Below, one piece after another: positions 41,878 through 54,634 of a DNA stretch of 64,000 nucleotides. The stretch's first letter is position 1; the number at the start of each line of letters is the position of its first letter. Origin of the DNA: Cystobasidiomycetes sp. EMM_F5 (Eukaryota); assembly GCA_051047955.1 (NCBI GenBank), contig JBPGPT010000013.1, positions 310,001-374,000 of the forward strand, written 5' to 3'. Below the pieces are notes generated by a model. The model had not been told where the DNA came from. It made no database searches and was given only the letters and a program-made list of their open reading frames with translations. The position numbers were made by a program, and so were the translations under genes.

Positions 41878-42131
41878 CTGTCTCTCCCTCTATCCGCCAC
41901 TCGCCCGATGCAAAACTGTACATTTTATGCGACTGTCTCTCCTGCGCTCCTCCTCGAATACGACACTATCTCCTGACAATACCCTGCATTTGGACTATAC
42001 TGGCACTCTTTCAATCATCGTCTAATCTTCATCCCCCGCCTCACTCCCGCTTTTGTACGACACTCTCACGTCAACGTCCGACAAGCAGATAGCATCAACG
42101 ACGACCATTGTGAACCTCGGGCTCACTCACC

Positions 42132-45100
42132 ATGCCGTACGTCTCGCCAGCCCTGTCGCCCGCAAAGGCATTCGCATCCGTCTACCCCTCCCCGCCAGGA
42201 TCAGCTGGACCATCGTCCCCGACCGCGTCCGTCTCTGGTGGAGCTCACTCGAACGGCGGCTACTCTAGTCCGACCCATCCCCGGTCTCGCTCGGGCTCTG
42301 CCAGCCTCAACTCTTCGGCAGCGTCCAGTCCGATGCACTCGAGATCCGGCAGCTCAAACAGTATAGAAGCGACGTATGCCGCTCACTGTGCACCTCACAT
42401 GCAGAATGCAGTGCAGACGTCGAGTACAGTCGACTTTTCACCCGCTTACACGAATGGCTTTCCCGCGTCGACCTCTCAACAGGCCAAACGACCCACTCAC
42501 CGCCATCACAACAGATCACACTCTAGCGATACCCTCGTGTCTATGGGTTCAATCTCCACAAAGCAGACGCCAGGGTACATTTTTGTCCAGCCCGCGTCCC
42601 CTCAACGCGGCGTAGATTCGCATTCGAGGTACTCCAGCACAGAGACTGTTACCGCAGATTCGACACCCTCTACGACCCCTTCCTCTTCGACATCATCGTC
42701 AGTCTCCTCCCTCGCAGCGGCGTCCTCCTCTGGATACAGGACTAGCTTTCGACCACCCAGTCGCAACAATTCGTCGTCTAGGTTAGCGTATCCTACTTCA
42801 CCGCCCAATAATGCAGGTGACGATGGCGACGTCGCTCCTCCCCGCACATCGAGGTCTAGACGCGCTCGCCTGGCAGTCTCTGAAGGCGGCACTTCTCTTG
42901 GATCCACGTCCGGTTCTGGGACGGTCTCTGCCGACCATTCCCCTCGTGCGAGTCTGAGTATGAACATTTCGCGAGGAGTAACGAGTGGCGGCGAACCTGC
43001 TCAGTCACCCTTTACCCTACCTCTCCCAGATCTCGACGCAATGTCTCCACCGGCATTTGCGAATCGAAGCTCATCCAGCCCAAACCTCTCTACCCTCGGC
43101 TTGGACTATACGACTGCCAAAGAACGACCCTACTCTCGACTCAATCCTAGTCCTTCTGCTTCACCTCGTCACTCTCCAAGCTTGGCTATCCCCATGTCGG
43201 CCAGCGATTACTACCACTACCAGCCATCGAGGCAATTTCACGAACAGCAATTGCGGTCGGGCGCTTGGGATTCAGTAGCAGAGGAGAGTGAAGATGGGGA
43301 ACAGACGCCTCGTGCCGAAGCGAGGTATGGCAGCAGCGGCATACTCGGTGATAACGCCGATGAAGGATCCCCAACACAATACGTCCGAGCGACAGACCTC
43401 CCGCCCAACGATTCTGCACTGGCAACATCGTCTGAAAGCCCTTCGTCTGCATCGAGTGATGCTGGGTCGGACGACGATCGTATCTCTAAACACCTCGAAA
43501 CGAGATTGGGAAGACCTTCTCCGTCGCTTGCTTCTGCGAGGTTTCGGGCGACCAACTGGGGACAGGGTGGTGCGCCTGCCATGGACTCACCAGTCAGTTT
43601 CTCGTTTGCAAGAAGCGGAAGCTCGAGCAGTAGTAGCAGTACGGGTGGAAATACTCCTCCAAATGACGAGGCTGCGTATCCGGATTCAGCGAACGGAGAG
43701 ACTGGAAGTGAGACGGAGAGGGAGAGGGAGAATGCGACTCCAATGTCTACCTCTACGATACCGACTTCGGGACCTTTTGCGCCAGGGTCGAATCCAAACA
43801 CTGCGCGGATACGGAGACCTCAGCACACAAAGGCCTTTTCGGAGCGAGCAACAGGATCGCCAAAAAATAATGCAACGAGCACAAACAAGCCAAATTATTT
43901 TAGATTGGAACTAGAAGGTGCGGGGCCTTCCCGAACACCGTTTCCATCGTACAATTCCACGCCAATGGGACATGGTCCTTCAGCGAGCGAAGGAGGCGAG
44001 AGTCGGCGTGGTAGCAAACAACGTCCACCTGGCTTGCCTACACCCATGTTGAGGAAAAAGTCTGGAGAGTTGGTAAAGTCTAGCTTGAAGCACGATTCGA
44101 GAGCAAAGTCTGCACCGACGACACCGACTGGTCCTAAAGCGGTACATTTCGATGAGCAGCTGGAGCGCGTCAAGCACTTTTTGGCACAGCAGCGACCTCT
44201 GGCAGTCAGTAGAGATGGATCGCCTCAAGAGACTGAAACCGAAGATGATTCCGAAGCTGCTTTCCCCTTCCCGCCAATGACGACTTCTATACCTGCACAG
44301 ATTCAGCTCGTCTTGCCTGATTTCCCAAACAACACCCTTCCAGAGATTGGTCATCGCGATCTGTGCCTCGAGACGCTCGAGATTGCAGCAGATTCAAAGA
44401 GTCTGAAGGGCACTGCACTCCTTCGCAACATTTGCTTTGAAAAGCGACTCAGTATTCGCTTTACGTTTGATGACTGGCAGACAGTCTCGGAAGTGACGGG
44501 TGAATGGACATCGACCCTCGTTGGCGGCTCGCTGGATCGGTGGGCATTCACAATCAAGCTCCAAGACATGCTTGCGCGCATCGAGGAAAAGAAGATGTAC
44601 ATTGCTCTCCGATATAGCGTAGGAGGACGCGATATCTGGGACAGCAACAATGGCAACAACTACCGTGCAGAGTTTAGAAAACAACCAGCTCGCTCGCAAG
44701 CTGTAGTGGGTGGTTCGAGAGCTGCACGACACGAATGGTCCGTCACCAATTCTGGACAAGCGTCGGAGCGTATGAATGATCTCCGACGCGAACTCGATCG
44801 CCTGGTAGCAGAGCAAGACGACTTTGCGTCTGGAGACGAGGTTATCGTATCGAGAGGCATCAAGCGTTATATCGGACAGGAAGCGCTCGTCACTGCTCAA
44901 CCTCCTTCGCACCCGACCTTTGCGTCGAGGTATGACTTTGGTGCGTCGTTGAAGGAAGCTGGTGCTCGAAACAGCCCGCAGACCAACTTTGCAATTCTCG
45001 ACAACCCTTACTTTGCTGCCTCTGGCACGTCCGCAACTGCGACTGGCGGCGCTATCGATCCGCACGCGGCATGGAAGCCCAATCCTTCGCCTACGAATTC

Positions 45101-46172
45101 CTTACCGACATCTGGCAACAGCAGTCCTCCAAAGGGTCAATACTCGGCATTGTACGCCGGTGTCTCATCACCTCCTCTGCCCATTCCTGGTGTCGACGCT
45201 TCCTTCTCCACCACGCCGCCGGCTAGCTTTTCCGGACAGCCTTACTATGCGAGGATGGAGCACAATGGAGTCATTGCAACCGACTTTGGCCTTCCGAACA
45301 GCATGACTACAGTCCCTGCTAGCTTTATGAATGCGATGGGCGAAATGACGCCCACCGCGACCAGTGTCGGAGGAGTCGTTGGCTCGGTCGAAGACTCTCC
45401 CTACTTGCCTGCAAGCGACCTGCCTCCCGTCTCAGCACAATTCCTGGGAGGCGAGGCATTGTCGAGACAGGATCATGGCGTAAGTGTCCCTACCTGGGCT
45501 TCAGCGAGCGGTGCGATCGGCACTTCGCGGATTCTAGCACACGAAGCGACATCCCTACTTGAGCCATCCCTGGACGACAAAGACCCCCTTGATCCTTCGC
45601 TCTACTCTCCTGCCGTTTCTGCAGCTTCAGGTCCCAGTCCAGCAGATTCCCCAATCCGTCGCGCATCTCCCCCACCTAGACCAGGATCGCCAGAAGATCT
45701 ACTATCCCCATCTCCTTCTTCCGCATCCACCGACACAAGTATCTCGACTCCACAGTCCCCAAATGGGTCGCCTCCGTTACGACTGTTTCCCATGATTGAT
45801 GGCGGAGGCAGACCAGACATGGGCTCGGATACTTACTTCAATTTCGTTCATCGATGTGAGTTGACCCACCTTCAAAAGCAAATATTCCCATATTCTGACT
45901 ACTCTTCTTTAGACTGTTGGGGTAACGGTGAAGTTACCTCGCCTTCGCAAGTATCATCCTCTAGCACTAGCACTGCGTTGGGCTTGGCTGGCATGCACAG
46001 CTATGAAGCTACGACGCCAAGAGGCTCCACACCCTCGCACTCGTGCTCTGCTTCGCTCCTGTCCAGTCCTCCTGGATCAGCAGCCGGCTCGCGCACACCG
46101 TCACCTGTTCATGGCTCGCCTGCGCTTGACAGCAATGGCTTCATGTATGGTCCACGACCTGTTCAGATCTGA
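42132..46172 (+). CDS. Glycogen-targeting PP1 regulatory subunit with CBM21 domain (Gac1/Gip2-like)
   Basis: RKKSGELVKSSLK, PP1-docking KAVHF, and CBM21 motifs GTALLRNICFEKRLSIRFTFDDW and WDSNNGNNY. Likely in-frame intron at 45856-45912. Confidence 0.88.
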   Translation: MPYVSPALSPAKAFASVYPSPPGSAGPSSPTASVSGGAHSNGGYSSPTHPRSRSGSASLNSSAASSPMHSRSGSSNSIEATYAAHCAPHMQNAVQTSSTVDFSPAYTNGFPASTSQQAKRPTHRHHNRSHSSDTLVSMGSISTKQTPGYIFVQPASPQRGVDSHSRYSSTETVTADSTPSTTPSSSTSSSVSSLAAASSSGYRTSFRPPSRNNSSSRLAYPTSPPNNAGDDGDVAPPRTSRSRRARLAVSEGGTSLGSTSGSGTVSADHSPRASLSMNISRGVTSGGEPAQSPFTLPLPDLDAMSPPAFANRSSSSPNLSTLGLDYTTAKERPYSRLNPSPSASPRHSPSLAIPMSASDYYHYQPSRQFHEQQLRSGAWDSVAEESEDGEQTPRAEARYGSSGILGDNADEGSPTQYVRATDLPPNDSALATSSESPSSASSDAGSDDDRISKHLETRLGRPSPSLASARFRATNWGQGGAPAMDSPVSFSFARSGSSSSSSSTGGNTPPNDEAAYPDSANGETGSETERERENATPMSTSTIPTSGPFAPGSNPNTARIRRPQHTKAFSERATGSPKNNATSTNKPNYFRLELEGAGPSRTPFPSYNSTPMGHGPSASEGGESRRGSKQRPPGLPTPMLRKKSGELVKSSLKHDSRAKSAPTTPTGPKAVHFDEQLERVKHFLAQQRPLAVSRDGSPQETETEDDSEAAFPFPPMTTSIPAQIQLVLPDFPNNTLPEIGHRDLCLETLEIAADSKSLKGTALLRNICFEKRLSIRFTFDDWQTVSEVTGEWTSTLVGGSLDRWAFTIKLQDMLARIEEKKMYIALRYSVGGRDIWDSNNGNNYRAEFRKQPARSQAVVGGSRAARHEWSVTNSGQASERMNDLRRELDRLVAEQDDFASGDEVIVSRGIKRYIGQEALVTAQPPSHPTFASRYDFGASLKEAGARNSPQTNFAILDNPYFAASGTSATATGGAIDPHAAWKPNPSPTNSLPTSGNSSPPKGQYSALYAGVSSPPLPIPGVDASFSTTPPASFSGQPYYARMEHNGVIATDFGLPNSMTTVPASFMNAMGEMTPTATSVGGVVGSVEDSPYLPASDLPPVSAQFLGGEALSRQDHGVSVPTWASASGAIGTSRILAHEATSLLEPSLDDKDPLDPSLYSPAVSAASGPSPADSPIRRASPPPRPGSPEDLLSPSPSSASTDTSISTPQSPNGSPPLRLFPMIDGGGRPDMGSDTYFNFVHRCELTHLQKQIFPYSDYSSLDCWGNGEVTSPSQVSSSSTSTALGLAGMHSYEATTPRGSTPSHSCSASLLSSPPGSAAGSRTPSPVHGSPALDSNGFMYGPRPVQI

Positions 46173-46895: not shown

Positions 46896-49800
46896 CTACA
46901 CGCTTGTCGCTGCATCTACGAGCATTTCTCCTGATATATCTTCCGAGACGCCATCTGCACTCTCTTCCCGGCTCACGTCTGGCGATTGCCTGCCCCCCAA
47001 GACCCACGCACAGTACTGTTCCACAATGTCTGGCCAAGCTCCGACCGTATGGCCGGTCAGCGCACCATCGTCAAGAGACACTTGCTGACAAAAGTCGAGT
47101 ATTCGATCCCAAACGTCCCTCGTTAGCTCAGCGGAACCACTGAAGCCAGCCTGAAGATCGTGCATGACTTCAGCCGAGACTTTCAAGAATGTCTGAAGAC
47201 AACTTACACCAATGTAGTTGACAAAATCATGTCCGATCTCGAAATGTGGGGCCAAGATCACTCTCCACAAGTTCTCTGCAAGATTTGTAGCGATGCAATT
47301 GGTCGCCGGGTCCCGCAGTGCGTTAAAGCAGAAGCTCCAAAAGCTGCGGTATTCGTTTGATACGCGGACGGATTTGATTGCGATGCGATCAGAATCGTCG
47401 TCAGCACCGGATGCGAAACGCGTGTGCGCCGACACAGCAAAGGTCGTTGACGCCAAGTTCTCAAGCCATTCGCGTAATTTGGCAGAAGTGTCGATTCTGT
47501 GGCAAACAACGCAATTTCAGTGTCGTTCTGCATTTCGTCCAGTCCCGCTCTCACTCATTGTCCGCCAGCAGCATTATAAAATCGTTCTTGTCAAGTCGTC
47601 CTTGATCTGAAGCATCAAGACGCCAAGCCAGGAGCAAAGGATGTGGCTTGATCTATCTGTCAGCAACATCGGACCAAGCCTTTAAGTCTCGTACGTACGC
47701 CTTGGATGTCTAATTTCAGATCGTCACCGAATAGCTTGCTCACGCCTTCTTCTCCGATTATACGACGATCTGCAGGGTCTACATAGATAGCTGTCAGCGC
47801 TGTCCGCCTTGTATTCTGCCTTTTTGGAGTCACTGACCTCCCAACGCGTTCGCCCATCGTTCCAGACGGGCTTCATCAAAGGGGTCTTCCGTCATCACTT
47901 CGCCATCGTCGTCGGTACCAGAAGCATTACTATCATCCTCAGATGATTCGGCTTCACCGTTGACTTTATCGGACCTATCCTCATGTGAATCGGCTCCTGC
48001 GTCACTCGATGCTGCAACTGCAAGTTCTTCTGCGTTCAATCGTTCCTCGCGGTCTCCCTGCTCCTGTATGATTTCCTCCAGTTCTATCGATTCTTCGTGT
48101 ACACCACGTTCCTCTGGTCCCTCAGAGGACGAAGCCCTTGTATCGTTGGTTGCAGCTTCGGCCTCCGCATCTTCTTTATCATCGTAAGCCCCCGACTCGG
48201 ACATGCTAGAAATGTCGAGATCCGTGACTACTGGTCGGGGCGGAGTGGGTACATCCCGACTATCTTCCTGGACTCCATCCACGCCGACCTCCTCGTCTGT
48301 GACTGCAGTCATGACAATGGTGTGTGAACCAAGCTGTACAGTTTCCGACGGCTTGTCTGCTCCTGACGGTATGTCGTCTGTATGATGAGGCTCTGATTCT
48401 TCAGCTAAAGCAGCTGGCTCTGATTCTTCGACGACTTCAGTTTCAATCTCAGTTGAGACCATCACAGAAGTCGTCTGCGTGGTTTCCATGACGGCCTCGC
48501 CTTCAGTAACAAGCTTCGCTGCTTCAATTACTATGTTGGACGATGCATCTTCGATGGTCTGCATGTCTTCTTCAGCGAGGTCGCCAACTTCCAGAGCAGC
48601 TGCTACGGCCGAATCAATGGCCTCCCGCACTTCGTCTGAAAGATCTTGCCCGATGCCGGATGTGACATCGATCTCATCAGGTGCCACGCGCTGTATGGAA
48701 GCTGTAGGAGTATGATTGTCTTGTGGCAGCTCATCTATTACCGTCTCAGGCGGCGGGAGTTTAGTCTTCTCAATATACACAGCTGCATTGTTGTCTTTCG
48801 GCTGCTCCACAGGGACACTTGAGTCCACGGTTGTATCGACAGTTTCACGCACTGGCGGTACGGGGGAGTCAGACTGTTTGCCGCGCGCTGGCTGGCGTGG
48901 TCCAGTGTCTGCTCGCCGGCCCCATGTGCGTCGTGCCATTATCGAGTCCGATTCTGCGACAGTACCGTTGCTAGGAGTAGTGTTGATTTCGACCGGCCGT
49001 TCGCGACCAAGAGACGGTGAAAGACCGCCTATTTCAGAGAGTGGGCGCTGTTTTATTGTGTCGTCTGGTTCTTCGCCGACGAGGACATCGGACCCCTGCG
49101 AATCTTGCGAGGCAGAAGCACCCAACCGCTTCTGTTTGATCATCTTCTGCACCCGGACAGACTCCTCCTTCGCTGACTGTGCAGCCTCTTCCTTTCTTTT
49201 CTGAACTTGATCTGCGCTTGCGCGAGGTTTTGGCTGCCCGATGGTAGATGATTTGGCTACAACGACTTCGTCCTCATCGGATGTTTGGGGAAAGTCGTCT
49301 GCAAGACTTCGACGAGGATTGACAAAAGGTTTGAACGCAGATTGGCGTCTTTTCCCAGTTGTCCGACTTGGGACTAAGCCCTTGTCGGGAGATTTCGACT
49401 TACTTTCCGAGCGGCGGTCAGCGCTATTGCCCGGCGATAGCGACCGCCGTGTAATACGCGAACTCTGACAGGTCAAGGACGTCAGTGTGGGGCATCCCAA
49501 ATCGGCATTGCTCTCACTTCACGGTGCGGACGACTTCGAGCAGATGCGTGAGATGCAAGATTTGAGGGGTCGTCGCTGGAACGCTCCTCTGGAGGTATCC
49601 GTGTAGCTGCATAATCACGAGAGACGCGTGGCCGTCGACTGAATTCCTCTCTGGAGCGCGGCGATCGTCTCTCTTCCTGTTGTCCTTCCGACCCACGATC
49701 GCGCGAGGTAGGCTTTCCGTTCGAAATGCGAACTTTACGCGGCACTTCACCTGGTGCAGATAGGTAATCGTCGTCTTCGGTCCCATCTACAGACGGCACA

Positions 49801-52800
49801 GGGATATCGTGAGGCTCATTTTGGCCTTCACTATAGCTAACGGATCGCGACGAGCTTCGTGAACGCCTTGGGTAAAGTGCGTTATCTATGGTCGGCATAT
49901 TAATTTGCGTGTGAGACGCATTTGATAGCTGTCTAGCATTCTCGAGCCTCTGAGCTTTCGCTACAGCATGTTCGTCGCCGCCCACTGCAGCAAGAGCTGA
50001 TGAGCGGCTCCTATGCTCAGACACAGCAGGAGGCAATCGGAATCTCCTCAATGAAGCAGATACAGTGCTCTTTCGGACGCCCTTGACTTTTCTCGCGGGC
50101 TGCGAGTTGGATGTCGCGATGCCGGACTTTTGAGAGCCGGCTGCCGAATCTTGCTTACTCTGACTCATGATCGCAGGTACCTCTCGTGGGAGAGGCACTT
50201 CGGCTGCAGTCTCAAAGTTATGTGTGTCCTCGTCCTGGAGTTGTCGGTTATTGTCAAAGCTAGAGTGTCCGTCCTCTTCCGCTACCTCAGGCATATCGTA
50301 GTCCGAAATAACTTTCGTGACAGAGTTTGGCTGTTCATCTTCTGACGTACGCTTGATGAGGTCTCCTGCGATGAAGGGAGGGGGCAGCGAGGCATCGTCG
50401 TCGCTATATCTCTCGGACGGTCGCGTTGCCGGCTCCCCTCTATCCGCTTTTGCATTGATTGACCGCGAACGACGGCCCACTGCCAGCAGCATGGTCGACA
50501 GACTGTTGGGAGAATGAGACACCACCTCGTCTCCCTCCTGCTCATCGGCTTTGTCCAGGACCATAGGAGAGATTTGCGTGACTCGGTGGTCAACCCCATC
50601 AGTCACAGTATTGATCTGCGACCGGCGCAACTGCTCTTCGTCTCTCGGCGATCTCGCACGGCTCTTTCCTTTCCTGCCAGCTGACGGTCGCGGGCTTTCG
50701 TTGATCTCACTCGCTTGCTCGTCTGGATGTACCAGCTTATTTTGGGCAAGTAGAGGCGGATCTCGTCCGCCTCGCGCAGCTTTGGAGGATCGACCGGAGT
50801 GAGCGTAGACATTCGACGCGTTCACGCTTGTATCCGCCTCTTCGTCAACATACCAATCAGGCTCTCGGTGCCTGAATGCACTGTCAAGTTCTTCGATAAT
50901 TGCGCGCTGCTCATCGGATTCGGAAGTACTCGGCTCCGGTATCCGAGCCTTGACCTCCAAAGTGTCTTCGTGTATTGCACCTGCGTCAGCAGCGCATGCT
51001 AAAACTCAGCGGGCTTTTGGTTCCGAGATCATAAACTTACCCTGCGCATTTCTGGCCCGAGCTCTAGCCTTGGTACTGGTAGCTTTTCGCAAGATAGAAG
51101 AGTCATACAAATTGTCATTGTCTTGCTCGCCACCGATGATTCGCCCTTGAACACTAGGGTCGGAATTCGGTCTGGACTTATGAGCCGATTTCTAAATTGT
51201 TCATCAGCAAAACAGTCGAGATATGTTTGTCAGCTTTGTCTAGATTGTACGACTTACTGTGCTGGGTACAAAATAGCTGCTTTTGGCTACCGCAACTTCG
51301 TCATCGTCAGACAAGTCCCCACGGGATGGTCTGCCTTTTCTGCAAGCCGAGGACGGCCTTGACGCTGGGCTTTGTACAGTAGGAGCTCTCCCTTCCGACA
51401 CCCGACGCCGCTTAGACTGTCTTTCAGCCTCCTTCGATATCCGCCGTTTAGTCGACCCCGCCCTTTGCGAAATTGATCCATTTACATCACTATTTTGTTT
51501 GATTCCAAGCGTTCGTTCAGATGTTGAAGCTACCGCAGACGACGTAGTATGACCACATTTGGTAATAGAGCTGGTATCAGCAAAAGCAGCTTCGGCACGC
51601 TCCGCTTTTTCCGCCTTAAGCAGCTTTGCCTGCTTCTCACGTTCATTGCGAACTGCCTGGAGTTCTCGCTCCGCATCTTCAATTTCCAGTCGCATGGCCT
51701 CCAGTTCTTGCCTGTGCTGCTTTGCCAAATCATCCGACTGACTCTTACGCCGATTCTGCCTTCGTGCCTCGCGTTCGATCTCCGCTTGCTGCGCCTTTAT
51801 CTCGTCTTCCTTCGCATCCAGCCGATCTTGTTTTGCTGCCACCTCTTGCCGCTTCGCTGCTAGTTCTTCGCGAACGGCTTCGAAGCGCTGTCGCTCGTTT
51901 GCCAATCGATCTGCTTCGAGGCGCAAACGGGCCGTCTCTACAGCGAACTCTGCTCGAGCACGGGCTGCTTCAGCCTGCCGCTCCTGCGCCAAGTCTTCCT
52001 GTGCGCGTCGCGGAGCGTCCATCTCGGCAGCAGAAGCGCCCCGCTTGGTTGCCTTGCCAGCCTTGCGGAGAAGAACAAGTGTATCATGAGAGACGGCGCC
52101 TGCGTCACGCTGCGGGGAATTTGCATGACCGTTCGTGTGTGCTTGTCCTCGTACAGCTGAACGCGGGGGTGCCAAGACGGGTTTGGAGGTTGAAGCTACG
52201 ACTTCTTCTTCGATGTCATCGTGCTCGCTTGTGTACGCGCTTGCAAGCTCATCATCGCTGTCGTGCGCTCCTGCTCCCGGGCTCTGCAACTCCGGCTGCA
52301 ACAACGGGCGAGCTCGTTCCGAGCCGTCTGATTGCTCAGCATACGGACGTCTACTCGGCCGATCCCGGGTAGCAGATTTTGTAATAGACTTTGTTCTGCT
52401 TATGCCAGACTTTCGCCGGCTGCTCTTGTCGGACCCCGGACTAACTTTTGCTGCTGAGCTTTGCTTTTTCGCAAAGGATGGCCGAGATGATGGACGGGTA
52501 GCTTTGTGTGCGATATTCTTGGGTTTTGATCGAGCGTCTTGCGATTCTTCGTCACTCGAAGGCGGGGCAAAAATGGACCTTTCTGATTTCCGCTTTCTCT
52601 GCGATGACTCATCTGCAGAGTCGTACTCGCGCTGACGTGACCCTCCCACCTTTGTGCCTGGCTTTGAGGCGGCCTTGTCTGAGTTCGGTTTTGTTGACCG
52701 CGAGACAGAGATATCTTGCTCGTCTAGAAATGGTCTGCGCTTGCTGAATTTTGAAGTCGTGGCTTCATTGAGGTCTTCCAGAGCGGCTATTGATTTTCTC

Positions 52801-53361
52801 TGTTTTACCTGTACTTTAGCCTCCTCACCGGAAGAGTCGGAGACATCCACTGCTTGGGCGCTTTGCAGCGCCTTCTTGCTTGCGGCTGGCCTGATTGTAA
52901 TCGACTCGTCCTTTGCTCTAGGTTTGCGTTCGTTATCAGACACCGAGGCTCTCCGCTTACTCCTCTTGGCGGCGTCGCTGGTCCTCGAAGAGCCCTTGCC
53001 CTTTGCGTTACGGCTCCGGTACTCTGAACGTGAGCGGTCTGCTTTCGTAGCCTGCGAGGTTACATATCTATTAGCGTACCATGTCAAAGCTCAGACGGCT
53101 CATCAAAGCACGCACGACCAAAGAGCCAACGGTGACCACATCGCTCGCAGCGCTGTTGCCCTCTGCGTCGCTTTCCACCTTCATGCTCCGCTCCTGCTTA
53201 AACGCCCTAGACAGCTCAGCATTTGGCAGCGCTTTCGCTTTCTTGTCGTCGATTTCGCTGCCATTGTCAGTATCGCTGTTCCCGGACCCATTATCAGACG
53301 ACGACGAGGTTTGAAGTCTGCGTTTCCTCGCTGCCGACGGTCTCGTTGGTCTTGAAGACAT
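46896..53361 (-). CDS. ~2,000-aa protein: long low-complexity/coiled-coil region plus C-terminal DCN1-like (PONY/cullin-binding) domain
   Basis: Nine exons: 53116-53361, 51258-53051, 51041-51191, 49518-50980, 47838-49464, 47699-47778, 47555-47646, 47208-47496 and 46896-47150. All introns are GT-AG and join in frame. The C-terminus has IGEEGVSKLFGDDL, LLLAWRL, YRSFWSFCF, LWRVIL, TRDVWDRILDF and GAWPDIVEQY. Confidence 0.75.
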
Positions 53362-53577
53362 GGCTGTGTTGAACTGAAGTCGATGTTTGTGCAGCTATTT
53401 CATGGTTGTCGCGGTCAAAAGAAGAGAAGGTCCATATGGCTTCTGATCAAGTCTCAATCGCGCAAAGTACTGACACGACTGACTTTGACACGCTCACAAC
53501 GATTGGCATTGATATATCGTATATGAGCTGAGCTGTGACGAGTCTCAGTCTTCCCGTTTCCCGCTTGTCCGTCAAAG

Positions 53578-54634
53578 ATGACCTCGTTACTCAAACCAAA
53601 CACACAAGCCTTTGCTCACTCCAGCCTACAATCTCTCCATGCAAGTCTACTGTGCCGTGTCTGCGGTGAGATGGTCGCCGACGAGTCCAGCCTCTCTGCG
53701 GCAGGTCAACAACGGAGCCTGGTCAGATTGACGTGGTGCGGGCACGCATTCCACCTGCCATGTCTTCAAGAGAGTCCTCAAAGCAACGTGTCTCTGTCCG
53801 AGAAACAGCTCAGCCAGCTCGAACACCTAGGCGCAGTATACCTGAGAAAGGCAGCATGTCCTATATCCGGCTGCGTGCCAGCAGAAGGTGGAGAAGGCAT
53901 CATTCTCGGCGTCGATGTTGGCGGAAAAGCGGTGTCCCAGCATTGGAGACAGGTCTGCGAGTCGCTCAAGCAATGGAATCCTCCTATGGTACGTCTATGA
54001 AAGCTGTGTGCACGGAGTCATCAATATCTGACAGTTTCTCTAGACGCAAGATATAAAACCATCTCCTGACCCCACAAAGGAACTCGATACATCTGCTACC
54101 GAGATCAAGCAGATTCGGCCTCCTGCTGCAGTCTCTCAAAGAGGACACAGCACTGCAGTACAAATCAGGGCAGAGCACGAAGAGCAGCCCGGTGGCATCA
54201 AGTGGTCGCGAACATCCCATGAAGATGGGCAGGACAGAGTATTCAAGCGTCCACGGCTTCCTACGAGCAAAGGTCAAACAGTCGAAAATGTGAGAGATTC
54301 GGGTGATCTGGACAATCGCGATGCAGAAATTGTGTCGCTAGACGATGAAGTCGCCGATTCAGACCCTGAAGAAGAGGAAGATACTCTGAGACACCTCTTC
54401 AGCGCCAGCCAGGCTTTGAAATCTGATCAATGGGAGAGTGCTCCAGTCGCAAGCCAAGAAGGTGAAGCAGACAATGATCATGCTGGTACTGGCGGTGAGG
54501 AAATGGCAGTAACAAAGGATACAAATCCCGAGGAGGACATTCCGCTGTGGGCCCGAGGCTGGAGCCCTATCGACGAATATGGCGCTCCGCCGAACAGTCA
54601 ATTCGATCTCATGCGGCGGGAAGTCAGAACCTGA
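53578..54634 (+). CDS. RING-H2-type zinc-finger protein with acidic disordered tail (~333 aa)
   Basis: CRVC...CGHAFHLPC...CPISGC. Intron 53989-54043 joins in frame to an open exon 54044-54634. Confidence 0.72.

Follow-up and report, generated by a model that had tools for sequence, protein, structure and literature searches.

Examination of a 64,000-nucleotide stretch of the genome of Cystobasidiomycetes sp. EMM_F5 (contig JBPGPT010000013.1 of assembly GCA_051047955.1, forward-strand positions 310,001 to 374,000; hereafter the window, in whose own numbering all positions are given) revealed a very long reading frame on the minus strand, between positions 46896 and 53361, which ends in a PONY domain, the cullin-binding domain of the DCN1 family. 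The presence of this frame and of its C-terminal domain, reported earlier in a first-pass annotation made from the sequence and its list of open reading frames, is confirmed; the interpretation proposed there is partly supported, in that the fusion and the domain hold up, and the protein may be a lineage-specific scaffold that would tether cullin neddylation to chromatin or to a nuclear body. In DCN1, the PONY domain docks on the winged-helix B (WHB) domain of a cullin and on the acetylated N-terminus of the NEDD8-conjugating enzyme (NEDD8 E2), promoting the transfer of NEDD8. For the window protein the balance tips, in our judgement, towards a single basidiomycete-type gene that encodes a disordered arm and a divergent C-terminal PONY domain in one product of about 218 kDa, the arm setting where, or with whom, the PONY domain docks on a cullin and the NEDD8 E2.

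The coding region (46896..53361, minus strand) was reconstructed from the model translation, the list of open reading frames (ORFs) and coding statistics. Stop-to-stop ORFs lie on the minus strand at 53071-53394 (107 amino acids), 51240-53090 (616), 51006-51191 (61), 49482-51005 (507), 47830-49518 (562), 47660-47872 (70) and 46896-47516 (206), and the gaps between ORFs are just 46-66 nt, which leaves no room for separate genes. Nine exons running from 53361 down to 46896 splice into a coding sequence of 6,003 nt, that is 2,000 codons and a TAG stop (ATG at 53361-53359, TAG at 46896-46898), and the predicted protein has a mass of 218 kDa and an isoelectric point (pI) of 5.4. Six ORFs had previously been chained through eight canonical introns into a frame of about 1,998 residues; our model departs from that chain only in small splice choices. 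The eight introns measure, in order, 64, 66, 60, 53, 59, 46, 58 and 57 nt. All of them have GT-AG ends and a CTRAN-type branch-like motif close to the 3' end (CTGAC in four, CTGAA in two, CTAAT and CTGAT in one each), and seven of the eight have to be spliced out if the frame is to stay open, either because of a frame shift or because of an in-frame stop.

Sequence comparison confirmed the last ~260 residues as a complete but divergent PONY/DCN1 domain. The domain itself (residues ~1745-1967; 46998..47886, minus strand) is assembled from the end of exon 5 and exons 6 to 9, with introns 5 to 8 inside the span. Exon 6 (residues 1761-1787; 47699..47778, minus) was placed by the gene model and the alignment to DCN1, and exon 7 (residues 1788-1820; 47555..47652, minus) by the 46-nt intron 6, the sole in-frame solution, with acceptor ATAG. 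Exon 8 (residues 1820-1916; 47208..47496, minus) carries an insert located between the two PONY halves, which contains T-F-A-V-S-A-H-T-R-F and an acidic run and is specific to the clade described below. Exon 9 (residues 1917-2000 and the stop; 46896..47150, minus) contains D1928, A1954 and E1960, with an acidic tail after them. Against Pfam, the translation of exons 8 and 9 matched PF03556 (Cullin_binding) with an E-value of 2.7e-11 and 44.3 bits (cut-off 27.9), over profile positions 14-118 of 118. Sequence matches in the PDB (phmmer) were to Galdieria DCUN1 (3kev, 4.6e-6), DCNL2 (4gao, 1.2e-4) and DCNL1 (1-2e-3). A tblastn search with the Dcn1 of Rhizoctonia (P0012 in our numbering of database proteins) returned three colinear high-scoring segment pairs (HSPs), on exons 6, 7 and 8-9, with a combined E-value of 3e-15.

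Alignment to ten ordinary DCN1s showed that the spliced C-terminus is colinear with them across the whole domain, from helix 1 to the final W. Residue class is kept at 44 of the 58 columns conserved in these ten proteins; one of the 58 is merely their start Met, and the window protein leaves the canonical class at 13 of the 57 informative columns. Most hydrophobic positions of the N-terminal PONY half hold their class, and most hydrophobic core positions are kept in both halves, together with the W-P that follows the A of the DAD patch. In DCN1, a hydrophobic pocket takes the N-acetyl-Met of the NEDD8 E2. An AlphaFold2 (AF2) model of the exon 8-9 piece alone reached a mean predicted local distance difference test (pLDDT) of 71 and a predicted template-modelling score (pTM) of 0.61, and the top ten PDB rows returned for it by Foldseek were all DCN1 (probability 0.87-0.99), as weak matches at E-values of 0.12 or more and a template-modelling (TM) score of about 0.4 over ~120 columns. 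The likeness of the last ~240 residues to a PONY domain, first noticed in the sequence alone, is thus borne out by Pfam, by the PDB matches, by alignment over the whole domain and by the Foldseek ranking. Scanning of eight exon translations against Pfam detected no UBA domain, in agreement with the absence noted earlier, and no match above threshold outside the PONY piece; a tblastn search of the 64-kb window using five DCN1 proteins as queries brought up no second PONY domain (all other HSPs at E >= 0.02).

In Keuss et al. 2016 (PMC4886823), the DAD patch of yeast Dcn1 is given as D226, A253 and D259, invariant residues that bind the cullin. The alignment and a check of its columns place the equivalents D, A and E of the window protein where they had been predicted, at D1928, A1954 and E1960, with the canonical spacing of +26 and +6. 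Both D1928 and A1954 are identical in all ten ordinary DCN1s.

Relatives were sought by a full HMMER scan of the PONY piece against 1.84 billion representative proteins, with matches accepted at E <= 1e-3. The matches include the ORF of the window itself and eight unnamed ORF fragments (103-183 amino acids, 36-41% identity) that contain the clade insert; the rest, as far as the named ones that were looked up, are basidiomycete DCN1s of 298-415 amino acids (26-33% identity) plus a protein of Cyanophora. A maximum-likelihood tree was built from 21 rows, unrooted, leaving aside P0001, P0003, P0008 and P0010 (the own ORF and three short fragments). It grouped the window protein with P0002, P0004, P0005, P0007 and P0024 (support 100/99, branch 0.76), apart from the 15 other rows, which include Agaricomycete and Microbotryomycete Dcn1s and the Cyanophora protein; within these 21 rows the window PONY domain does not fall in the Agaricomycete/Microbotryomycete Dcn1 group. 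The split, with the window protein and the fragments apart from all ordinary DCN1s on a long branch, fits a fast-evolving paralogue, and we take the gene for a probable second PONY paralogue, evolving fast, and not for the ordinary Dcn1 of the organism. The core of the insert, S-S-H-[TL]-R-[FY], is common to P0002, P0004, P0005, P0007 and P0024. The DCN1-like identification made in the first-pass annotation stands for the PONY domain, with the correction that this does not appear to be an ordinary Dcn1; it falls in a divergent clade whose other members mostly lack the DAD residues. Pattern scans of metagenomes for the DNA of such relatives matched 513 and 325 stretches, none of which was confirmed as a relative.

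The junction between the arm and the PONY domain lies inside a coding exon. Exon 5 (residues 1219-1760; 47838..49464, minus) contains the second copy of a short motif described below as well as a very acidic block, PONY helix 1 lying at the 3' end, and it is open for 542 codons back from that helix through the acidic block. No stop, intergenic gap or frame change separates arm and domain. As PONY helix 1 shares an open exon with the acidic block, the fusion is written into the DNA, and at this level it holds as first described.

The arm itself, of ~1,740 residues, begins in exon 1 (residues 1-82; 53116..53361, minus), which runs from the first ATG of its ORF to a GTGCGT donor and encodes the start of a basic block rich in S, R and K. 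Exon 2 (residues 83-680; 51258..53051, minus) continues the basic block and adds a charged, heptad-patterned helix as well as copy 1 of the short motif; it had no Pfam, PDB or Atlas match. Exon 3 (residues 681-730; 51041..51191, minus) has GTAAGT donors at its flanks together with a CTGAC branch motif, and exon 4 (residues 731-1218; 49518..50980, minus) is a mixed-charge, low-complexity stretch without Pfam, PDB or usable Atlas relatives (best Atlas score 0.79). The composition of the three N-terminal blocks, basic, helical and acidic, agrees with the earlier description. The first 300 residues form a basic, S/T-rich part (pI about 10, K+R 19-24%, S+T 21-27%), and over residues 1501-1800 the net charge is -17 to -24 per 100 residues. 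Between them lies a charged helical segment (residues ~430-575; 51573..52010, minus), charge-balanced and Ser-poor, in which heptad counting found a strongly hydrophobic residue at every seventh position over nine heptads (F, L, L, F, L, V, L, I, I), with an Ala-rich position four residues further along. At the best heptad position, 48% of residues are L, I, V, M or F, against a background of 16%, a pattern compatible with a candidate coiled coil. In a charge-hydropathy comparison, all 22 N-terminal windows of 80 residues fell at or below the boundary and all three PONY windows above it. Single-sequence AF2 modelling of exon 5, which is weak evidence, left 391 of 542 residues with pLDDT below 50 (pTM 0.20) and produced isolated helices only. 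Except for the heptad-patterned helix, the whole arm looks disordered.

Searches with the arm exons against the Atlas gave no usable match, the best score of 0.79 being in the chance range, and a comparison of exon 5 with proteins of 950-2710 amino acids found no long relatives, a negative of limited weight. Self-BLAST of the protein detected no internal duplication larger than a 12-residue motif, S-D-[DE]-D-E-V-[AV]-V-A-K-S-S, which occurs twice in the arm with about 617 residues between copies. A regular-expression scan located the copies S-D-D-D-E-V-A-V-A-K-S-S (residues 663-674; 51276..51311, minus) and S-D-E-D-E-V-V-V-A-K-S-S (residues 1280-1291; 49246..49281, minus). A similar acidic run with a V/I-rich core is present in the arms of the Dcn1s of Arthromyces, Rhodotorula and Phenoliferia. 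In its acidic, V-rich make-up the motif would seem to resemble a SUMO-interaction motif, and it may be a docking motif.

In the mechanism that we propose, the PONY domain would still dock, as expected from its family, on the WHB domain of a cullin and the acetylated N-terminus of the NEDD8 E2, and the giant arm would decide where or with whom this docking happens, most likely in the nucleus, by analogy with the N-termini of the DCNL proteins. Localisation of DCNL3-5 is believed to be set by their variable N-termini, which has been shown for DCNL1, 3 and 5, and the N-termini of DCNL4/5 direct localisation (Keuss et al. 2016, PMC4886823). A nuclear role for the arm is suggested by two things, the ten clusters of at least three K/R in the protein, NLS-like in the basic part of the arm, and the analogy with DCNL4/5. 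The specificity of DCN1-type co-E3s is believed to come from short variable N-termini, in a manner described as largely unclear (PMC4886823). If our reading is true, an arm of 1,740 residues on a PONY protein would make an extreme test case for arm-directed cullin activation.

Several findings weigh against this reading. The third DAD position holds E1960, where all ten ordinary DCN1s have D, and relatives from the clade show D/V/A, K/A/S, E/R/K and R/E/R at the DAD positions, so that cullin binding may not be the conserved function of the clade. The PONY domain is very divergent, with Foldseek matches no better than E 0.12 and a TM score of about 0.4, and just 24 proteins among the 1.84 billion representatives reach the threshold, ordinary Dcn1 being 26-33% identical. 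The arm is without detectable relatives in Pfam, in the PDB (exons 2, 4 and 5, at E <= 0.01) and in the Atlas. Finally, an in-frame methionine, Met1741, stands four residues ahead of the PONY domain and could start a protein of normal size.

The first group of these findings could also be explained by a giant protein with a degenerate PONY fold that no longer promotes neddylation, a generic protein-binding module, or one that binds cullin but is inactive, carried on a disordered scaffold with some other main function. The assumption of co-E3 activity is indeed weakened by the divergent clade, in which the DAD residues are mostly missing from the other members: these have lost one to three of them and keep canonical residues at 22-30 of the 38-42 conserved columns covered. 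The long branch of the clade (0.76), the insert between the PONY halves, the E at the third DAD position and the 13 off-class columns of the window protein point in the same direction. The window protein, however, is the most canonical member of its PONY clade by alignment. Its DAD positions are occupied by D, A and E, the exchange of D for E is conservative, and the W-P after A and most hydrophobic core positions are kept (residue class at 44 of 58 columns). We regard such a loss of function in the window protein as unlikely. Were its PONY domain inactive all the same, it would illustrate how a co-E3 fold can be turned into a plain docking module.

Met1741 leads to a second alternative, in which the locus yields two products. 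A PONY-only protein of ~260 amino acids would be translated from this methionine, on a short mRNA starting in exon 5 near 47.9 kb, together with the giant form or instead of it; with intron 5 retained, the long frame could stop after two intronic codons and yield ~1,762 amino acids without a functional PONY domain. The position of Met1741, four residues short of where the PONY alignment begins and with a purine at -3, is suited to such a start, retention of intron 5 does bring a TGA two codons into the intron, and DCN1s are normally small, none of the 24 proteins matched by the PONY piece exceeding 415 amino acids. Two products would nevertheless require an internal promoter within a coding exon and overlapping transcription units, in a place where the DNA bears no mark of a gene boundary: no stop interrupts exon 5 between the acidic block and PONY helix 1, and the canonical GT-AG ends of intron 5 are accompanied by a CTGAC branch motif. 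This arrangement appears distinctly unlikely to us, and we favour a single fused product.

The coding nature of the long frame was assessed against chance. When the region was shuffled 200 times by mononucleotide, the longest ORF came to 172 codons on average and never exceeded 366; the longest real ORF has 616 codons, and three ORFs on one strand (616, 562 and 507 codons) each exceed every shuffle maximum. The sense strand is T-poor, with an AT skew of about -0.2, which accounts for the long chance ORFs. Codon log-likelihoods trained on 16 other long ORFs of the window (training range 0.06-0.26 per codon) were calculated for seven exon stretches (exons 1-5, 8 and 9), exons 6 and 7 being too short. 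The model frame was the best of six frames in six of these seven stretches, with 0.14-0.22 per codon, inside the training range, and in all five exons longer than 90 codons; in exon 3 (50 codons), one antisense frame scored 0.160 against 0.142 for the model frame. That the ORF chain is an artefact, made of unrelated low-complexity frames or of a decaying pseudogene joined by chance splice-like sites, can practically be dismissed: the T-poor sense strand does lengthen chance ORFs, up to 366 codons in the shuffles, and no homologues of the N-terminal exons were found, but three ORFs of 507-616 codons on one strand surpass all 200 shuffles, the model frame scores best in every exon above 90 codons and within the range of other ORFs, and all eight junctions are GT-AG with branch-like motifs and restore the frame, which runs for 2,000 codons with no frameshift or premature stop.

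Among the splice choices, intron 8 deserved particular care, being in frame and stop-free. Left unspliced, it adds 19 residues that form an insertion relative to all five aligned relatives spanning the site (P0002, P0004, P0005, P0009 and P0024); with the intron removed, conserved flanking motifs lie 11 residues apart, the same distance as in P0002. The ORF of P0003 ends within ~15 residues beyond the position of intron 8, as expected if P0003 reads into an intron there. A first intron of 28 nt, using a nearer GT, was dropped as too short in favour of the GTGCGT donor at 53115, which gives 64 nt. Alternative acceptors for introns 6 and 8, judged by eye, were dropped because they shift the frame into stops. 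The database protein P0006 (Arthromyces matolae, 415 amino acids) has an insertion of ~30 residues exactly at the intron 8 site, which suggests that its annotation contains a retained intron. On the opposite strand, a 250-codon open frame (51620-52372, plus) overlaps the charged helical segment; codon usage gives 0.04 or less for the antisense frames of exon 2 and 0.156 for the sense frame, and this open frame is most likely a by-product of A/G-rich sense codons.

A bolder version of the preferred reading may be put forward as speculation, and we think it improbable in its full form. The window protein would then be the first member seen at full length of a fast-evolving fungal PONY paralogue clade that has gone unrecognised, bears the H-T-R-F insert as its mark and was recruited as the cullin-docking end of a disordered 218-kDa nuclear scaffold, whose duplicated arm motifs would act as SUMO-interaction-like or docking motifs confining neddylation to a chromatin or nuclear-body compartment. 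Apart from this speculation, current annotation misses the divergent PONY clade, all the other members found being unnamed ORF fragments.

The sequence surrounding the gene is fungal in style (GC 49-56%, short introns, typical fungal genes). Two neighbours bound the unit: a divergent RING-like ORF opens ~180 nt upstream of the ATG, and a convergent gene with a CBM21 module ends at 46172. The divergent neighbour (53539-54000, plus) shows a RING-H2-like Cys/His pattern and reaches Pfam scores below threshold for zf-RING_Vps41 (24.2 bits, cut-off 30.3) and zf-rbx1 (21.5 bits, cut-off 31). A RING gene and a DCN1-like gene sharing a promoter region make a suggestive pair, which may be a coincidence. 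The convergent neighbour (42114-46172, plus) is a Ser/Pro-rich frame of 1,352 codons with a central CBM21 starch/glycogen-binding module (E 1.8e-24), and its product is probably a PP1 glycogen-targeting-type subunit.

The size of the protein was singled out from the start as unusual for the DCN1 family, and so it proved: about 2,000 amino acids, against 415 or fewer in each of the 24 matches. A comparison of the PONY piece with proteins of 350-2000 amino acids, itself weak evidence, found no long form. A profile search among proteins of 728-2075 amino acids gave one PF03556 protein, the 'Dicer-like 1' of Mycena venus (P0028, 1652 amino acids), in which a truncated PONY domain at 270-356 abuts the Dicer helicase; it was rejected as a genuine long PONY protein, being probably two merged neighbouring gene models. 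In the titles and opening lines of the abstracts retrieved on fungal or basidiomycete DCN1 and cullin neddylation, no giant DCN1-like protein is described.

Compared with the DCN1/DCUN1D family as a whole (DCNL1-5; PF03556; PDB 3tdu, 4gao and 3kev), the window protein has the same C-terminal PONY domain with both halves present and a variable, non-catalytic N-terminus (PMC4886823); its DAD positions read D/A/E instead of D/A/D. It differs in its length, about 2,000 amino acids against ~230-415, in the absence of a UBA domain, in the strong divergence of its PONY domain (PDB E-values from 4.6e-6 to 2e-3) and in the insert between the PONY halves. Human DCNL4 and DCNL5, which are nuclear, and DCNL3, which is membrane-anchored, offer a parallel division of labour, the unstructured N-terminus localising the protein and the PONY domain doing the cullin work (PMC4886823). 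In DCNL3-5, though, the N-termini are short and contain a single nuclear localisation signal or myristoyl site, whereas a localising role for the arm of the window protein is suggested by its K/R clusters.

The closest comparison is with the ordinary Dcn1s of basidiomycetes, here those of Rhizoctonia solani (298 amino acids), Plicaturopsis crispa (373), Arthromyces matolae (415), Rhodotorula araucariae (359) and Phenoliferia psychrophenolica (381). In these proteins, too, a basic, Ser/Ala/Lys-rich and apparently disordered arm takes the place of the UBA domain, the PONY domain has an intron or insertion at the corresponding site, and three of them show an acidic run with a V/I-rich core. Their PONY domains are 26-33% identical to that of the window protein and lie on the opposite side of the split supported at 100/99. 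The presence of an N-terminal arm in place of a UBA domain is thus upheld for the window protein; as a wholly new idea it is not, since ordinary basidiomycete Dcn1s already have one. Their arms measure roughly 60-280 amino acids, and judged by these sequences the 1,740-residue arm of the window protein is an order-of-magnitude expansion of a habit of the basidiomycete lineage.

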